DNA of 54,163 nt from a virus (lineage: Duplodnaviria > Caudoviricetes): the IMG/VR virus record IMGVR_UViG_3300047457_001050, positions 1 through 54,163 of that record; one strand, given 5' to 3'. Of the stretch, positions 9,528-35,005 are shown piece after piece. The translations under genes and the position numbers were made by a program. Each line of letters begins with the position of its first letter. The stretch's first letter is position 1. The notes beneath the pieces were generated by a model. It saw only the letters and a program-made list of their open reading frames with translations. It was not told the origin of the DNA and did no database searches.

Positions 9528-9803
9528 ATGGATTTCTTTAAATTAGTAGCAGATGTTGGATTTCCTATAGCGGCTGCACTAGCTGCGGGCTACTTTGTTT
9601 TCCTTACACTAAAATTTATTCTAGATGGCGTCACATCTAGTGTCAATGGTATGGCTGGAATAATTAAAGGCCTTGATGCTAGAGTATCTACAATGAACCA
9701 TGATGTTCAACGTATTGATGTAAAGATCAGTCATGCGCTAGGCCTACAGCCTGATTATAATCGAATCAGTCGTGCTGAGCAGAGTGATCAAAGGAGAGAC
9801 TGA
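9528..9803 (+). CDS. Small membrane protein (YvrJ-like/holin-like), paralog 1
   Basis: GFPI motif, one TM helix, then a coiled coil. Confidence 0.55.
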   Translation: MDFFKLVADVGFPIAAALAAGYFVFLTLKFILDGVTSSVNGMAGIIKGLDARVSTMNHDVQRIDVKISHALGLQPDYNRISRAEQSDQRRD

Positions 9804-16446: not shown

Positions 16447-17163
16447 ATGGAAATACTATCATTTGAATTCTTATGGGCTTTACTAGCCATCATCTTAATA
16501 GACGTCGTATTAGGTGGTGAAAATGCCCTAGTCATTGCCATGGCTGCTAATAAGTTACCCGAAAATCTAAGAAAGCGAGCCATGATATGGGGAACATTTG
16601 GTGCTGTGGCAGTGAGGTTCGCCTGTGTGGCAGCACTTACATATTTGTTGATGATTCCCGGTCTTAGGTTTGTAGGTGGTCTTATGCTTATATGGATCGC
16701 ATGGCGTCTTACTACAGGCAATGATGATCACAGCGATGTTAAGGCTAGTGATACATTCTGGGGAGCAATGGCAACTATTGTTCTAGCAGATGCTGTGATG
16801 GGACTAGATAATGCGCTAGCCATTGCTGGTGCTGCTAATGGAAACTGGATCCTGATTATATTTGGACTTCTTGTCAGTGTTCCTATTATCTTGTTTGGTA
16901 GCACAATAGTAGCACGTATTATGGAACGTCATCCTGACACAATCTTTATCGGCGCATTCGTGTTATATGCTGTGGCCTTTAAGATGATCGTAGCAGAACC
17001 CTTTGTTGACCAGTTTATTGATCCATTACATGATTGGTCCGAAATGGGACTCCCTTGGGTTCTAGCAGTTGTTTTAACCTGTAAGCAATATTATAGAACA
17101 CGCATAAGGAAATCGAAAAATGAAACCAGTTCTACTTCAGACACTGATAGCAGCACGGAATAA
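16447..17163 (+). CDS. TerC/YjbE-family integral membrane protein
   Basis: IDVVLGGENALVIAMA and LADAVMGLDNALAIAGAA motifs; multiple TMs. Confidence 0.9.
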   Translation: MEILSFEFLWALLAIILIDVVLGGENALVIAMAANKLPENLRKRAMIWGTFGAVAVRFACVAALTYLLMIPGLRFVGGLMLIWIAWRLTTGNDDHSDVKASDTFWGAMATIVLADAVMGLDNALAIAGAANGNWILIIFGLLVSVPIILFGSTIVARIMERHPDTIFIGAFVLYAVAFKMIVAEPFVDQFIDPLHDWSEMGLPWVLAVVLTCKQYYRTRIRKSKNETSSTSDTDSSTE

Positions 17164-17287
17164 AAATACAACCAAGCCTGACTTTAAAGATATAGATCCT
17201 GTCCATGGTGGTCACAAGGACAGGTCAGGGTTTATTGTATTTTTAATATTGGTTGTTTCTGTTATCTTAGCATTAGGAATGAGTTAG
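17120..17287 (+). CDS. Unannotated 55-aa ORF with C-terminal TM helix
   Basis: AAGGA SD; MKPVLLQ...SGFIVFLILVVSVILALGMS. Confidence 0.4.
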   Translation: MKPVLLQTLIAARNKNTTKPDFKDIDPVHGGHKDRSGFIVFLILVVSVILALGMS

Positions 17288-17385: not shown

Positions 17386-17597
17386 TCTAACTTCTCCCCA
17401 CAATGCGGACAGCGTTTAGTGTCCTTACGATGTTGATGTAGAACATCTTCCCATTCTTTTATTTCTTTTATAATCTTTTTCAGTGTTCTACGGCAACGGA
17501 TGGGTTTGTCTTTGTCTAATTCATCTTTAAGACGTTTTCTAAGTTGTCCTACTCGTTGTTCAAACACACCTAAAAATCCACCGGTTGATTCACTCAT
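17382..17597 (-). CDS. Small protein with C-terminal CPHC zinc-knuckle motif
   Basis: RCPHCGEKL; translationally coupled to neighbours. Confidence 0.55.
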   Translation of the reverse strand: MSESTGGFLGVFEQRVGQLRKRLKDELDKDKPIRCRRTLKKIIKEIKEWEDVLHQHRKDTKRCPHCGEKLE

Positions 17598-18595
17598 TAT
17601 ATGCCTCTATTAGATTGTCACGAAATATCGTCCAGGCAGCATCCCATGACCACCTTTGACTACCAAGTATAACATCGTTTCTATCTAATATCAAGCATTC
17701 TGTTATAGCCTGTTTGAGATTATCTCTCAAATATCCTGTCCGTCCATGATCAACAACATCTTGCGGTCCCTGGACAGGATATGCTGCCACTGGTGTGCCA
17801 CAGGCCATGGCTTCTATCATGACAATGCCAAATGTTTCCCAGCGTGAGGGAAATACAAATACATCAGCATTGGCATAGTAAGTGGCCAATTCATCACCAC
17901 GCTTAAATCCCACAAACTCTACATTGGGATACTTTTCTTCTAATTCTGCCCTATAAGGACCATCTCCCACCATGATTTTACGAGCACCGAAATAGTCCAA
18001 GGAACAAAAATCATCCAAGTTCTTTTCCTTGCTGACACGACTGACACAGACCAATACAACTTCTCCTGCTCGTTTTGTTCGTAGTTCAGGACGAAACACG
18101 GATCTATCTACACCACGAGTCCATGGTATGATATTACCACGTAGTCCTTTGCTCTCTAATTGACGGACCATTGATTCTGTGGTTGTCAATACTCGACCTG
18201 TATGTTTATGAAACCACTTTATGTAACGCCAAGTTATTGATTCAGGAATGCCAAGAAGGGTATATAGTCCTTCAGGGAACTTAGTGTGATAAGCAGTATT
18301 ATACCTAATATGATGTTTTGTAAGATATTTTCGAGCCCACAGACCCACAGGACCCTCCGTGGCGATATGGTAATAATCCGCACCGATCTCCTCAATCTTC
18401 TCGCCCATCTTCCTCGGAAGGGCAAGTTTGACTTCGTTATAGATAGGGCAATCAACATGGGCTGAAGTCCCCGGGAGTAATATAAACAAACTGATAACTG
18501 TCACGAAGCGCACACGCCTCAATATTCGAATATGTTGTAACGACGCCATTAATTTGATTTGGTAGGTTGTCTGTTATGATCAATATTTTTTTCAC
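17590..18595 (-). pseudogene. GT4 glycosyltransferase (Agt-like glycolipid synthase) interrupted by a 1-nt frameshift near 18459-18461
   Basis: GTG at 18595 gives VKKILIITDNLPNQINGVVTT...ITPGDFS in one frame; HVDCPIYNEVKL..HIATEGPVG..VSRVSKEKN..ETFGIVMIEAMACG continues in another frame. Confidence 0.8.
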
Positions 18596-19942: not shown

Positions 19943-19960
19943 TTTACAGATTTATTACAT
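19943..19960 (-). promoter_or_regulatory. Pho-box-like site
   Basis: ATGTAAT-AAAT-CTGTAAA versus consensus CTGTCAT-AWAW-CTGTMAY. Confidence 0.6.
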
Positions 19961-20970
19961 TAATGTTTGATCTGACTCCAAACACGACTGCGGATATCGG
20001 CCTGTAACTTGTCAGGTAAATGAACATAGTCAAGTTCTGCGCTTAACTTAGCACCGTTCTTAAATGCCCAATCAAAGAATTTAATAACTTCTTGGCTGGC
20101 CTTTTTATCAGCAGGTTCTTTATACATTATAATAAAACTTGCTGTGGTAACAGGCCAAGTATCCTTGCCGCCCTGATTTACAATACTCAAGCCCATTCCT
20201 GGAACTGAGAACCAATCTGCTCCCGCTGCGGCTGCTGCGAAAGTTGCGTCATCAGGGGCAACAAAGTTACCAGCCCGGTTTTGTAGCAACATGTAATTCA
20301 TTAAATTCTTCTTAACATAAGCATATTCAACATAACCTATGCTGCCTTTAATCCTATTTACATTGGCAGCAACACCTTCATTGCCTTTGCCGCCAACTGA
20401 ACTAGTAGCAGGCCATTTTACAGCAGCACCACGGCCCACACGCTTTTCCCACTCTGGGCTAACCACAGTCAAGTAGTCTGTCCAGTTGAATGTGGTTCCT
20501 GATCCATCAGCACGATGAACCACGGTGATATTCATGTCTGGTAACTTTTTACCTGGATTTAATGCTTGTAGTTTAGCATCATTCCATTTGGTAATGTTTC
20601 CCATAAACACTTCTGCCATAACAGGTCCTGTTATGCGAAGTTCACCTGGCTTGAACCCTTCAAGATTAACCACAGGCACTGTGCCACCTATGATAGCAGG
20701 GAATTGAACTTGACCCAATTTGTCAAGGTCTTCTCCTTTTACCGGAGCATCACTTGCTCCAAAGGCTACAGTTTTATTGTTGATTTGACGGATACCACCC
20801 GAACTACCAATGCTTTGATAGTTTAAGGTATTGCCTGTGGCTTTGTTATATGCTTCGGCCCATTTGGCATAGATAGGATATGGAAAAGTAGCACCAGCGC
20901 CGGTTATTTCTGCTGCTTGAACAGCCACAGAGAATAAAGCGGCCGCAGCAGCCATTAAAAATCGTTTCAT
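19960..20970 (-). CDS. pstS: Phosphate ABC transporter substrate-binding protein
   Basis: Signal peptide; GAGATFPYP, YQSIGSSGGI, FGASD, HRADGSGTT, GKGNEGV and IGYVE motifs. Confidence 0.97.
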   Translation of the reverse strand: MKRFLMAAAAALFSVAVQAAEITGAGATFPYPIYAKWAEAYNKATGNTLNYQSIGSSGGIRQINNKTVAFGASDAPVKGEDLDKLGQVQFPAIIGGTVPVVNLEGFKPGELRITGPVMAEVFMGNITKWNDAKLQALNPGKKLPDMNITVVHRADGSGTTFNWTDYLTVVSPEWEKRVGRGAAVKWPATSSVGGKGNEGVAANVNRIKGSIGYVEYAYVKKNLMNYMLLQNRAGNFVAPDDATFAAAAAGADWFSVPGMGLSIVNQGGKDTWPVTTASFIIMYKEPADKKASQEVIKFFDWAFKNGAKLSAELDYVHLPDKLQADIRSRVWSQIKH

Positions 20971-21000
20971 TTAAGTTTTCCTTTTTAGTTTAATTAGATT

Positions 21001-21101
21001 GAGATCAACAACGACAAGTAGTTTTACATTCGCAATAACACATACGAAGTTTTTCACATACCCAACACCAACATTGTTTTAGTTTTGTCATTGTTGATCT
21101 C
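21001..21101. repeat. 17-bp inverted repeat bracketing the Cys-rich ORF
   Basis: GAGATCAACAACGACAA (21001-21017) and TTGTCATTGTTGATCTC (21085-21101); the single mismatch is a G-U pair on the minus-strand RNA. Confidence 0.85.
21005..21091 (-). CDS. Unannotated 28-aa Cys-rich peptide MTKLKQCWCWVCEKLRMCYCECKTTCRC
   Basis: Strong AAAGGAG SD 7 nt before ATG; 8 Cys in 28 aa; fills the phoX-pstS gap. Confidence 0.65.
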   Translation of the reverse strand: MTKLKQCWCWVCEKLRMCYCECKTTCRC

Positions 21102-21113
21102 CTTTGCGTTATT

Positions 21114-23321
21114 TTACACGCCTATTAGTCCGCCGTCAACTCTGGTGATTACCAAAGTTGCTGAACGAGGACGACCTGAGACACCATAGCCTTGATTAGC
21201 GGGCCATTGACTTTGTGGTGCAGATCCTTTCCAAAAATCAGTAGTAGTGTCTTCACCTGGATGTTGAACATTGACAAATATAGTTCTACCATCTGCGGAT
21301 TCGGCGATACCGGTGATTTCACAACCAGCAGGGCCAGTTAAAAATCTACGCAATTTGGTTTCCCCTAGTTCGGCACCCACGAATGTGGCCTGATCTTTAG
21401 TAGCACCGCTTAGACTATTTGTAATGGTACGAGCACCACCATCCCCAACTCGACCTGGGATAGCCACTAGCAGTTGATTATGAACTTCATCTGTATAAGC
21501 ACCGTCATCTGTCTGTATCCAGCACAGACCAGTAGCCTTGCTGAACCATAAACCATCTGGGCTACTAAACGAGTTCTTAGCAGTGAGTTTTGAAATGTTG
21601 CTGGCAGCATTGTCCTCTTCTGAACCAAATAAGAAGATGTCCCATTGAAATCCTGTAGCAGTCTCACGCCAACGAATAATATGTCCATTGGGATTGCCTG
21701 TGCGCTTGATGCCATCTGGATCAGCATAACTTCTCGGGTTAGCACCATCTGTGGTCATTGGAGTGCGATTGCTGGCTGAGTTGTTGGTTAAAGCAAAGTA
21801 GATTTCACCATTGGCAGGATTTACAGCACCCCACTCTGGACGATCCATCTTGGTAGCACCTACAGCATCAGCGGCTATGCGAGTGAATACAAATATTTCT
21901 GCTTGATTATTAAACTTGAATGTGGCATAGTTGGCAATAGCAGGATTTGTAATACTTAACTCAATCCATGTGCCGGTGCCATCAGCAGCAAACTTGGCCA
22001 CATACAATTTACCTTCATTGAGATATTTGTCGCCAGCGGCAATGCCACCGCCTTGATCAGCAGGATTCCAGGGTTGAGCGCTGACAAACTTGTAGATATA
22101 CTCATTGCGACTATCGCAGCCCATATAAAACACCACAGGCTTACCTGCTTCCAATTTGCCATATACCGCGGCTTCATGAGCGAAACGACCCATGGCCACA
22201 CGCTTGACAGGTTGTGCTCCGGGGTTTAGTGGATCAATCTCTACATTAAAACCAAATGTATGAGGTTCGTTGCGGAAGTCTTCCTGGGCGGTGCTACCAC
22301 GAGCACTGGTATCCCAACGACTAAAACGCATGCCAGTGTCGGGTAAATCAGTGGGGGTATGCCATCCTTGACTGGTGCTGGCTGTAGCACTAGCAGACAA
22401 TGGTTCTGCTGCTACGCCATAACGCTTGCGAGTTTGGATGAGTCTAGCATCTACTGGATTACTGCCTTTGGGCATATGAGTATATACCGCCCAGTTTTCT
22501 TCGCAGGTTAACATGGTTCCCCATGGTGTTATGCCTGTTCCACAGTTGTTTAGTGTGCCACGAGCGGTAGCACCAGTTGGATCAAACTTGGTAGACATTA
22601 AACCTTTAATGTTAGCCATTTCTGCGGCCGGTCCGCTGATTCGCACGGGAGTTTGTGCTGTAACCCTTCTATTTAATCCGCTATCTACCTTGTATGTCCA
22701 ACCTGTGCTACCCTTGTTGATCTCCACGAGACTGACACCGTGGTGATTGATTTCTTTCAAAACTTCTAGCCCGGGACGAACACCTAAATCCCACTGACCA
22801 AACTGATCAAACTTTTTCCCGTTTTGACCGTTGCTGGTCTGCCCGTTGGGATGAAAAAAGTGTGCGTCTGCTGAACTTTCGTGATTCATTGCTAATACAG
22901 CACGATTGGTCATTTGTGTAGTATATTTCCCATTGGCATCGATATGGAATAATTCCACACCATCGTGGTGATCGCCTACACGCTGACTCCAGTCATCGGT
23001 CTCTGTGCCTTTGTTTGAATAAGCAGGAATACTACTTACTAGTCTATCTCCTGTGCCATGTAGCACTGTGAATTGATAACCCGGGGGTAGTGTGACACGG
23101 TCTAGAGTATTCTTTGGAACTGCTTCGAAACTCAATGTGCTAGGCGTAGGTAATAGATCTTCATCGCTACTGGCACAACCTGCCAGTGTGGCTGCTGTAG
23201 CAGCCGTAAAAAAAGCCGAACTTCCTTTAAGGAAACTTCGGCGATTTGGGTTGCCTAACATCTCTTTAATCACATCACTGATATGTGGATTGTGAGATGT
23301 ATTCTCAGTCTCTGTAATCAT
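21114..23321 (-). CDS. phoX: PhoX-family alkaline phosphatase, Tat-exported lipoprotein
   Basis: RRSFLK Tat motif, LAGC lipobox; HHDG, NHE, GTLNNC..TPWGT.LTCEEN, GRFAHEAA, MDRPE, SPDGL, EITG and NVQHPG motifs. Confidence 0.95.
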   Translation of the reverse strand: MITETENTSHNPHISDVIKEMLGNPNRRSFLKGSSAFFTAATAATLAGCASSDEDLLPTPSTLSFEAVPKNTLDRVTLPPGYQFTVLHGTGDRLVSSIPAYSNKGTETDDWSQRVGDHHDGVELFHIDANGKYTTQMTNRAVLAMNHESSADAHFFHPNGQTSNGQNGKKFDQFGQWDLGVRPGLEVLKEINHHGVSLVEINKGSTGWTYKVDSGLNRRVTAQTPVRISGPAAEMANIKGLMSTKFDPTGATARGTLNNCGTGITPWGTMLTCEENWAVYTHMPKGSNPVDARLIQTRKRYGVAAEPLSASATASTSQGWHTPTDLPDTGMRFSRWDTSARGSTAQEDFRNEPHTFGFNVEIDPLNPGAQPVKRVAMGRFAHEAAVYGKLEAGKPVVFYMGCDSRNEYIYKFVSAQPWNPADQGGGIAAGDKYLNEGKLYVAKFAADGTGTWIELSITNPAIANYATFKFNNQAEIFVFTRIAADAVGATKMDRPEWGAVNPANGEIYFALTNNSASNRTPMTTDGANPRSYADPDGIKRTGNPNGHIIRWRETATGFQWDIFLFGSEEDNAASNISKLTAKNSFSSPDGLWFSKATGLCWIQTDDGAYTDEVHNQLLVAIPGRVGDGGARTITNSLSGATKDQATFVGAELGETKLRRFLTGPAGCEITGIAESADGRTIFVNVQHPGEDTTTDFWKGSAPQSQWPANQGYGVSGRPRSATLVITRVDGGLIGV

Positions 23322-23380
23322 CTGCTTTCTCCTATGTAAATGATTGTTGCTAATATTTACATTTATATTAGCATTTAATG

Positions 23381-23398
23381 ATTACAGAATTATTACAA
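23381..23398 (-). promoter_or_regulatory. Pho box upstream of phoX
   Basis: TTGTAAT-AATT-CTGTAAT, about 60 nt before the phoX start. Confidence 0.75.
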
Positions 23399-23686
23399 CT
23401 ATTTGTTTAATAAGGAATTTTTAAGATCAAGATACTCAGAAATAAAATTCATCTTGTCTGCTGTAGAAGGCATGTCCTGCCATTCTGCTTCTTTGACATT
23501 CTTAGTAACAAAGATTTCATAGTCGTGTCCGTTGCCCTTGTATAAGTTTACAGTTTGAAAACCTGCGGGGCTGTCTGCTGCTTGAATTAAGGCCTGTGCT
23601 AGTTCTTTTAATGCGGCACGTTCTCCCACTATGTAAGCGGGGTCTTTGACATCCTTACCTGTGTATATTTGTAGTCGTGATCTCAT
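23399..23686 (-). CDS. Hypothetical protein
   Basis: ATGA overlap with the dnaE-like stop. Confidence 0.55.
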   Translation of the reverse strand: MRSRLQIYTGKDVKDPAYIVGERAALKELAQALIQAADSPAGFQTVNLYKGNGHDYEIFVTKNVKEAEWQDMPSTADKMNFISEYLDLKNSLLNK

Positions 23687-25347
23687 ACTAATTCTTGTAG
23701 TTTGATTCTTTTATGTTTGTATACTGTAACATACTCTGTGTTATTTTTATACCCCAATTTGCCCGTTCCCCATATGATAGGATGATCGTGTAGGCTAACG
23801 GCATGAGGTAAGACCACATCTAGATAACGACCATTGCCTGTGCCCAGTGTGACAAATGTTATATACTCTTTGGGCTTTGATTTAAACACACGATAGTTTG
23901 CTACCAGACCACAGAACTCTACCTGCCCTGGCTTGCGAATTTCCTGGCACACAGGTATAAAACTCTTTGAACGCCAACGACCCATTTTCATTAGATCCTC
24001 AATCTCGCCACCTTGACCTATGGAAGGCACAGCACCTGCTAACTTTGCTTCTTGCCAATAGACCCAGCGAGCATATGATCCTTGACAGTGTTTTAGAGCA
24101 GCACGCCAGAACGCTTCTGGATTGTGTGCTTTCTGATAGGCCAGAGCCCAGATCAACCTTCCCAAGTTTATAGCATGAGCACGACACAGGCCAAAATGGC
24201 TAAGTTCTTTCAGTGCCATGAACACATCGTCCTTGCGTGGATGATCTCCTACTAGTTGTAGGAACTCGAACATCTTTTCTTCATTCTTCTTAGCAAAGGC
24301 ACGTCGCCACATGTCTGCGGTATAACTATCACAGCCCAGGATTTCTGATATAAGTTCTATAGCATCATCTTCAAACACTATGGTATCCTGAAAACCATCC
24401 TTTGACCAATCTTGAAAGAAACTAGCCTTACGACGACCTTGTGTGGCCACCGGACGAATTAGAGCAGTGGCCAAGGTGCAGTCACTCTTGCTCTTGGGAC
24501 GAATAGCACGAAACAGACGTTTCATAGCAGGGCTTTCACCCTGTGTTACACCCAGTATATCACCACGACATAGTAGTTCGCTGGTAGCCTCATCATGTTC
24601 GGGATAGTCGGACAATGAACGCTGTTCTATTTCCCATAGTTGACTCAATCCTCTGTTAGCAAGTATATCTATTTTAAAGTGTTCTAGGTCCTCAATTTCA
24701 TATTTGTCCAGTAGAATTTGATTCTCAGCATTGATTAGGCTTTTAGGCACTGAGCGATCGAATATTAAGATACCTCCACAGTGTTTAGAAATACAGCGTT
24801 TCTTACCTAGTAGTTTTTTAACTAACCTTTTAGCATCTTCGGCAAACTCGGGCACGACCTTATCAAGGTCAATATTACGAGGTAGTCTACCCTTAGCACC
24901 ATATCTCTTAGCGGCTTCACGTATGGCAGACTTTTCTTTATAGGTCACATAGTTTGACACACGAGCACTCTGTCCTGGCCATCTTTTGTATATCCTGTTC
25001 ATAACAGTTTCTTGTTGCCAATGAGGAAAGTCAAGATCTATGTCAGGTAAGTCATCACGTTTAGGATTCATAAAACGTGCTAGTGGTATTCGTTCCTTCA
25101 CAGGATCTACATCTGATATAGCCATTAGATAGCAGATCAGGCTTGAGCCTGCTGAACCTCTGGTTATGTGTGGAATGTCACGAGTTAGGTCCAGTATTTC
25201 CCTAACTCTGAGAAAGTGTTTGGCAAAACCTAGTTGTGCTATGAGTTCTAATTCTTCTGCTAGTCTTGTGTTATATTCTTCAGTATCGGGTATTTGCCTA
25301 GTAAATTTGGTGATGAGGTGTTCTAGTTCCCTGTATCTTGATTCCAT
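23683..25347 (-). CDS. Miniature family C DNA polymerase (DnaE-like) without PHP domain
   Basis: RLAEEL.LI..LGF, RGSAGSSL, RFMNPKR..LPDIDLD, HCGG, KIDIL, AHA and a C-terminal OB-fold-like segment. Confidence 0.85.
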   Translation of the reverse strand: MESRYRELEHLITKFTRQIPDTEEYNTRLAEELELIAQLGFAKHFLRVREILDLTRDIPHITRGSAGSSLICYLMAISDVDPVKERIPLARFMNPKRDDLPDIDLDFPHWQQETVMNRIYKRWPGQSARVSNYVTYKEKSAIREAAKRYGAKGRLPRNIDLDKVVPEFAEDAKRLVKKLLGKKRCISKHCGGILIFDRSVPKSLINAENQILLDKYEIEDLEHFKIDILANRGLSQLWEIEQRSLSDYPEHDEATSELLCRGDILGVTQGESPAMKRLFRAIRPKSKSDCTLATALIRPVATQGRRKASFFQDWSKDGFQDTIVFEDDAIELISEILGCDSYTADMWRRAFAKKNEEKMFEFLQLVGDHPRKDDVFMALKELSHFGLCRAHAINLGRLIWALAYQKAHNPEAFWRAALKHCQGSYARWVYWQEAKLAGAVPSIGQGGEIEDLMKMGRWRSKSFIPVCQEIRKPGQVEFCGLVANYRVFKSKPKEYITFVTLGTGNGRYLDVVLPHAVSLHDHPIIWGTGKLGYKNNTEYVTVYKHKRIKLQELV

Positions 25348-34981: not shown

Positions 34982-35005
34982 AAAGGGGGAGGTCCCCCTT
35001 TTTTT
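34982..35005. terminator. Intrinsic terminator hairpin after hsp20
   Basis: AAAGGGGG-AGGT-CCCCCTTT with flanking T and A runs. Confidence 0.75.

Follow-up and report, generated by a model that had tools for sequence, protein, structure and literature searches.

A cysteine-rich mini-ORF with start-to-stop pairing between phoX and pstS of a freshwater phage: a candidate self-throttling mini-gene

The spacer between phoX and pstS in a fragment of a freshwater virus genome holds an element of about 100 to 105 nt, in which an ORF encoding eight cysteines among 28 residues is closed by an RNA stem that joins the start of the ORF to its stop (Table 1). The fragment, hereafter "the window," is the whole stretch of 54,163 nt that was analyzed (CheckV completeness 16). 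Both the cysteine content of the ORF and the stem go beyond chance; the element is found in few of the related phages, sits where several of them carry a different hairpin, and keeps both ORF and stem in its known variants. Our preferred reading, to which we give a probability of roughly 0.4, is that of a mini-gene that throttles its own translation by start-to-stop pairing and doubles as an intercistronic hairpin. An earlier sequence-only reading had described the hidden peptide, its Shine-Dalgarno (SD) sequence, and the pairing; everything in that description is present, on the minus strand, which it had left unstated, and the names that it gave to the flanking genes, phoX and pstS, are confirmed by Pfam.

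Table 1. Features of the phoX-pstS region, in window coordinates
Feature	Position	Strand	Evidence or remark
Pho-box-like promoter (candidate)	23365..23398	-	two 11-nt direct repeats, 23398-23388 and 23387-23377
-10-like TAATAT of the Pho-box-like promoter	23370-23365	-	
phoX, alkaline phosphatase	21114..23321	-	Pfam PF05787, 1.2e-124
phoX stop TAA	21116-21114	-	read in sequence
Unpaired spacer, phoX stop to stem, 12 nt	21102..21113	-	read in sequence
Mini-ORF SD, AAAGGAG	21105-21099	-	7-nt spacing to ATG; last three bases inside stem
Stem 5' arm, GAGAUCAACAAUGACAA	21101-21085	-	holds three SD bases and the AUG
Mini-ORF ATG	21091-21089	-	within 5' arm
28-codon ORF with 8 Cys (coordinates include stop)	21091-21005	-	encodes MTKLKQCWCWVCEKLRMCYCECKTTCRC
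Stem 3' arm, UUGUCGUUGUUGAUCUC	21017-21001	-	holds last three and a half codons and UGA
Mini-ORF stop TGA	21007-21005	-	within 3' arm
pstS SD, AAGGAAAA	20976..20983	-	17 nt downstream of stem; outside any alternative pairing
pstS ATG	20970	-	
pstS, periplasmic phosphate-binding protein, signal peptide	19960..20970	-	PF12849 (PBP_like_2), 9.3e-34; phrog_5385, 1e-66

The two arms form 17 contiguous pairs, one of them U-G, with 67 nt between them, and the stem begins 13 nt past the phoX stop. The fold energy of the 126-nt RNA is -32.3 kcal/mol; 200 shuffles give -18.3 +/- 2.9 kcal/mol (z -4.78), and none of them is as stable; the duplex of the arms is worth -24.5 kcal/mol, and the mean pair probability of the stem is 0.97 in contexts ranging from 126 to 701 nt. 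Inverted repeats of at least 17 nt with at most one mismatch occur once in the whole window; first-order Markov simulation produced none in 40 runs, the longest repeat there being 16 nt. At equilibrium the fold computation leaves the AUG of the mini-ORF with an unpaired probability of 0.0 and its SD region (21098-21105) with a mean unpaired probability of 0.48, the ribosome-binding site (RBS) being paired with a distant segment, as in an SD-sequestering fold. Six of the 17 pairs are G-C or C-G, and the stem is followed by the tail AAUCUAAUUAAA; since this provides no U-tract, the stem is not an intrinsic terminator, and the terminator scan does not list it.

Among the local inverted repeats of the window, the stem ranks second of eight. 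The strongest (17161-17182 and 17224-17245; 22-nt arms, 86% complementary, 41 nt apart) lies between the ends of the convergent ORFs 16447-17163 (+) and 17590-18549 (-) and is possibly a two-way terminator.

With eight cysteine codons falling within 22 codons close upstream of pstS, the element invites comparison with a cysteine-sensing leader, in which stalling at those codons would alter the downstream structure and thereby set pstS expression, as the sequence-only reading had suggested. That idea fails at the pstS start: with either arm or the loop masked to mimic ribosome occupancy, the pstS SD remains unpaired with a probability of 0.76 to 0.78 and the AUG with a probability of 0.74 to 0.77, just as in the free fold. 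The terminator scan finds no terminator following the element, as an attenuator would have, and 12 of 13 relatives express pstS without the element. Hence, we disfavor a leader and regard it as highly improbable.

Turning to the ORF itself, the 240 ATG-initiated ORFs of 20 to 40 amino acids in the six frames of the window contain zero to four cysteines, this one alone having eight. These make up 29% of the peptide, against an average of 1.0% cysteine in the long ORFs of the phage, and lie at positions 7, 9, 12, 18, 20, 22, 26, and 28, forming C-x-C-x-x-C, C-x-C-x-C, and C-x-C motifs. Eight of the nine TGY triplets within the ORF are in frame, for which simple arithmetic gives a chance of about 0.003 for any one frame. 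AGGAG followed by ATG at a distance of 5 to 9 nt is found at 21 sites in the window, shuffles giving 6.5, and phoX itself starts from an AGGAG with the same 7-nt spacing as the mini-ORF. With fewer than 30 codons the mini-ORF lies below the floor of annotation pipelines, none of which calls it. Elsewhere in the window, two further short ORFs, at 9803 (+; 35 aa) and 42232 (-; 49 aa), each have a properly spaced AGGAG in front and apparently lie between long ORFs; they may be additional uncalled small genes.

The peptide carries a net charge of +4, two Trp, and one Tyr; it has neither a signal peptide nor a twin-arginine motif nor a lipobox. Its charged residues, at positions 3, 5, 13, 14, 16, 21, 23, and 27, leave no uncharged run longer than 7 residues, and this undoes the analogy, drawn by the sequence-only reading, to type I toxin mRNAs. 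On that analogy the peptide would be toxic and its mRNA silenced by 5'-3' fold-back. The start region does pair with the 3' end of the ORF. However, with charges every few positions the peptide has no membrane helix and is not the hydrophobic peptide expected of such a toxin; the ORF lies inside an operon rather than in a stand-alone locus; and a consensus promoter scan, of a kind that misses many promoters, lists no plus-strand site for an antisense RNA in 20695-21317. Of all the explanations considered, we find a toxin module the hardest to credit.

Searches for relatives of the peptide returned little. Comparison with Pfam and NCBIfam at E values up to 10 matched no family, and the same threshold against PDB gave a single match (E 0.31, a chain of a viral precursor membrane protein), which we take as chance; four Rfam matches at E 10, all far under the gathering scores, were likewise taken as chance. 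No match was found among 50,697 phage records, whether by tblastn with the peptide (E 10) or by blastn with 601 nt, and exact look-up of three peptide variants in a collection of 15 billion proteins found none. The peptide thus appears to be an orphan; at 28 residues it is too short for remote-homology methods, and "no relatives" is a weaker statement than usual. Limited literature searches turned up nothing on a Cys-rich mini-ORF at a phoX-pstS locus. A maturase of ribosomally made, modified peptides (e.g., radical SAM or cyclase) is absent from the 6 neighboring proteins compared with Pfam and the 24 compared with PHROGs in this window, which is a partial genome. As for the metallothionein-like character attributed to the peptide at the outset, its Cys composition fits, and no family or structure matches.

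The operon in which the element lies is one of phosphate acquisition. In the N terminus of the phage PhoX (23321-23180, -), a lipobox-like LAGC comes after a twin-arginine motif, RRSFLK, an arrangement that suggests a Tat-exported lipoprotein. Upstream of phoX are two direct repeats, which we presume from their resemblance to be a Pho box, that is, a putative PhoB site. Of 15 related loci, 12 have such a Pho-box-like promoter in front of phoX, and farther upstream the loci are unrelated in sequence; in a relative lacking phoX (L007) it stands directly upstream of pstS. PMC10976474 shows that phage pstS-type genes are under the control of the host PhoBR system and cautions against relying on Pho boxes predicted in phages. 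The phosphate genes appear to move between phages as a promoter-bearing cassette. In relatives the phoX-pstS gap is only 15 to 50 nt, so that pstS must be read through from the phoX promoter, and the relatives' junctions leave no room for a promoter between hairpin and pstS.

A promoter-like site, TTGACG-17-TAAAAT (21139-21111, -; 10 of 12 matches), overlaps the phoX stop, where a TAnnnT hexamer is kept in most relatives. As the source of a transcript starting at the stem, it was rejected as the main reading on two grounds: in relatives its predicted start would land in the 5' arms of the hairpins, and its -35 is ordinary conserved coding sequence. Elsewhere on the minus strand, a 554-aa ORF (23683-25347) has, of DNA polymerase III alpha, the NTPase and finger domains and no others; it is a short or split form.

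The element is rare. In a survey of PstS relatives, the ORF was found in only one of the best 80 of 303 loci examined, L001, whose PstS is 97% identical. The same contig was returned as L085, L110, L193, L208, and L300. Of 15 loci found through PhoX, 13 reach the junction, L200 and L206 being cut before it. One junction (L193, the L001 contig) has the element; seven (L195, L196, L199, L201, L202, L204, and L205) have a short GC-rich hairpin that begins at a homologous base; and five (L194, L197, L198, L203, and L207) have no structure. Among relatives that lack the element, the nearest is L194, with a PhoX 93% identical; it has no hairpin there either, which makes the element dispensable. In L202, whose flanks align with those of the window on both sides, a 13-nt hairpin stands where the window has the element. 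The relatives' hairpins resemble the element in starting 3 to 10 nt past the phoX stop, in ending 15 to 25 nt before the pstS SD, in belonging to the same operon, and in leaving the pstS RBS free. They differ in form: they fold at -10 to -18.5 kcal/mol with 6 to 10 bp and loops of 3 to 5 nt, contain no ORF, and in some cases precede a T-run, whereas the element has 17 bp, is AT-rich, encloses an ORF in a 67-nt loop, and lacks a T-run. A hairpin of the same GGGG...CCCC style is seen elsewhere in the window at 34985-34998 (GGGGGAGGTCCCCC), where it is flanked by A-runs and T-runs and resembles a two-way intrinsic terminator.

Pattern searches added few carriers. A scan for CWCWVCEK gave one locus in IMG/VR, the L001 contig, and five in metagenomes, of which L085 (the L001 contig again), L086, and L087 are carriers; L083 and L084 share only these eight residues, have unrelated surroundings and no comparable mini-ORF, and were taken as chance. 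A Cys/Trp pattern matched 105 IMG/VR loci (114 matches), all of them TGC/TGG low-complexity repeats except the L001 contig, and a Cys-only pattern with stop matched at least 120 loci, the L001 contig alone being real among the matches listed. A strict pattern had no match in 185,579 species genomes. The carriers are thus four distinct, near-identical contigs: the window, L001, L086, and L087. Sequencing runs extend the record. Roughly 14 DNA runs contain at least half of the locus, and contigs of four runs were compared with the window: X3, from another sample and year, has the element with no difference over 20851-21200, and DNA contigs of X9 and X11 carry an allele with 21088 T>C among the differences listed. 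In X16, an RNA library possibly containing DNA, two 144-nt contigs span 21088-21231 at a depth of 2.5 to 3.1; we read their shared end at the polymorphic position 21088 as an assembly branch point and not as an RNA end, so that they carry no message about RNase III cleavage, and the stretches of the element that X16 leaves uncovered have no significance.

Presence or absence of the unit among close relatives, together with near-perfect terminal inverted repeats (94% complementary as DNA) bounding about 100 bp, is also what a MITE-like mobile element would show, the 17-nt arms serving as its termini. Mobility of this kind is very improbable: the 54-kb window contains just one copy where a MITE would be multicopy, no target-site duplication is visible at the ends of the element, and when all IMG/VR contigs are scanned for the two arms around any interior of 50 to 80 nt, only the known carrier, the L001 contig, is recovered, at the same site.

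Variation was compared among four distinct sequences and one allele from contigs of the other runs, all near-identical. The ORF is intact with all eight cysteines in L001, L086, and L087. It has seven variable columns, of which four are synonymous third positions and three give T2A, R16H, and T25A, and no indels, whereas the pstS leader beside it has a 2-nt indel; the share of third positions, four of seven, has a chance of about 0.17 by simple arithmetic and is not significant. In the comparison of the window with L001, the spacer differs at 6 of 12 positions, the ORF at 5 of 87, and the flanking genes are 84 to 93% identical in nucleotides. Every carrier keeps 16 or 17 of the 17 stem pairs. 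Thirteen pairs are invariant; the variable ones include pairs 9, 10, and 14, two varying on one side yet remaining paired (C-G/U-G and A-U/G-U) and pair 14 showing the one two-sided change (A-U/G-U/G-C), with the G-U intermediate in L087, X9, and X11; the innermost, loop-proximal pair is lost in L001 and L086. Within the loop, a change in L087 breaks the inner hairpin, so the fold of the loop is not what is being conserved.

Every carrier therefore retains both the cysteine pattern and the pairing, the two features whose joint loss the sequence-only reading had named as evidence against itself. Support from conservation is thin, the carriers being near-identical and 12 of the 13 junctions lacking the element, and the covariation analysis proposed in that reading does not distinguish the stem from shuffles (248 of 500) among these few, very similar sequences. 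The stem is retained; selection on it is not proven. A 64-nt run of identity in the element, the third longest in 2.5 kb, was considered as a mark of extra constraint and set aside as unexceptional beside runs of 97 and 65 nt in the flanking genes.

One carrier has a composite history. Between L087 and the window (22523-20700), phoX is mostly 96 to 100% identical, with one 100-nt bin at 90%; identity is 83 to 87% over 21223-21024, 99% over 21023-20924, and 86 to 91% in pstS. L087 is a mosaic, with recombination joints on both sides of the element.

Such joints beside the element, the occurrence of the element in just four distinct contigs, the highly variable spacer among relatives, and a degree of conservation inside the element not above that of the flanking genes would all suit a neutral insertion, i.e., foreign, once-coding DNA with an inverted repeat that arrived by illegitimate recombination and persists because it is young. 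Nevertheless, in lineages whose flanks have diverged to 84 to 93% nucleotide identity the element has taken up nine substitutions, yet no stop or frameshift has arisen and no internal pair has been broken, and it recurs identically in X3 and as an allele in X9 and X11. We consider neutrality improbable, if less so than mobility.

The more serious alternative is that only the RNA matters, the stem stabilizing the phoX 3' end or forming an RNase III-type site while the ORF is never usefully translated. Of the three functions that the sequence-only reading had offered, a stem with a structural or processing role in the phoX-pstS spacer fits best; the leader and the toxin analogy fall away, and the metallothionein is left with its composition. 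The stem is far beyond chance, it occupies the place of the hairpin of 7 of 13 relatives, arm substitutions keep the pairing except at the loop-proximal pair, the AUG is fully buried, and the pstS RBS is left free as it is beside the relatives' hairpins. Yet a plain hairpin needs neither a 67-nt loop with a consensus SD and with start and stop placed in the arms nor such a concentration of TGY triplets (eight of nine) in a single frame; in L087 a change disrupts the hairpin inside the loop; and the stem, having no U-tract, does not act as an intrinsic terminator. On balance, we find an RNA-only element somewhat unlikely.

Taking these findings together, we propose the self-throttling mini-gene in the following form. 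A lineage-specific cassette would have replaced the short GC-rich hairpin of relatives in the phoX-pstS spacer, within a phage operon probably driven by the Pho-box-like promoter. Its product would be a cytoplasmic, cationic peptide of 28 to 29 residues with eight cysteines, probably metal or thiol active. The mRNA itself would gate the RBS of the mini-ORF through pairing of the last codons and the stop with the AUG and some bases of the SD, so that ribosomes might load only in the co-transcriptional interval of about 85 nt before the 3' arm exists. A ribosome reaching the UGA would melt the 3' arm and thereby free the start for the next one; once translation lapses, the 17-bp stem would close and silence the ORF. 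The closed stem might then take over the role of the relatives' hairpin between the two cistrons, shielding the 3' end of phoX or presenting a double-stranded site for processing, and it would leave the pstS RBS free. By its footprint, a ribosome that stops at the phoX UAA should halt about 9 nt before the stem begins, and coupling to phoX translation is therefore unlikely.

Against the mini-gene, whose translation is presumed, stands the AUG, fully paired at equilibrium; moreover, the variants are too alike to prove selection on a mini-gene. The loss of the innermost pair in L001 and L086, the ordinary degree of sequence conservation, the lack of matches to the peptide, and the dispensability seen in L194 also weigh against it. 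A bolder version would have a metallothionein-like micro-protein made in a Pho-regulated operon under start-stop self-gating, as a bistable switch that is on while translated; translation would begin on nascent RNA only and be sustained only by ribosomes melting the stem at termination, and the micro-protein would have a metal or thiol role in phosphate scavenging (e.g., as a supplier or buffer of the metal cofactor of Tat-exported PhoX). This extended version we consider unlikely.

If the peptide is made, a micro-protein would join the short list of phage auxiliary genes for phosphate acquisition, and if the gating is true, the element would be a compact natural case of a gene controlling its own translation by start-to-stop pairing. 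If there is only an RNA stem, the phoX-pstS junction would instead be a site where different hairpins swap in and out, which would point to selection acting on the uncoupling of phoX from pstS. The element being rare and dispensable, its ecological weight is small on either reading.

Several parallels are suggested by known systems. Folds that sequester the SD are familiar, and the start-to-stop pairing is one variant of them. Translation of the maturation gene of MS2 is reportedly confined to nascent RNA. As in the element, a distant complementary segment pairs with the RBS in that gene; PMC4615214 describes the SD of the MS2-type maturation gene as hidden by long-distance pairing and the equilibrated RNA as closed. 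In MS2, which has an RNA genome, the partner is an upstream segment of the 5' UTR, whereas that of the element is its own 3' end, including the stop; the element, unlike MS2, is an internal cistron in the operon of a DNA phage, and a translating ribosome is predicted to reopen its start. In hok-type type I toxin mRNAs, too, 5' and 3' parts pair and block translation, and the hok peptide is a membrane toxin accompanied by an antisense RNA and 3' processing. The element differs from hok in its charged Cys-rich peptide, in showing no antisense signal in the promoter scan, and in a pairing internal to a polycistronic RNA. The RNase III processing hairpins between genes of T7 and lambda, of about two helical turns with an internal loop, offer another likeness, as the element is likewise an intercistronic double-stranded stem, whose 17-bp perfect helix is near the accepted length; its stem is shorter than theirs and lacks the internal loop, and cleavage would destroy the start of the mini-ORF. 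Finally, short metallothioneins are Cys-rich metal binders of 25 to 60 residues with C-x-C and C-x-x-C motifs. The peptide is like them in its dense cluster of cysteines, small size, and lack of a signal peptide, and differs in matching no family in Pfam or NCBIfam and in its two Trp, one Tyr, and charge of +4.
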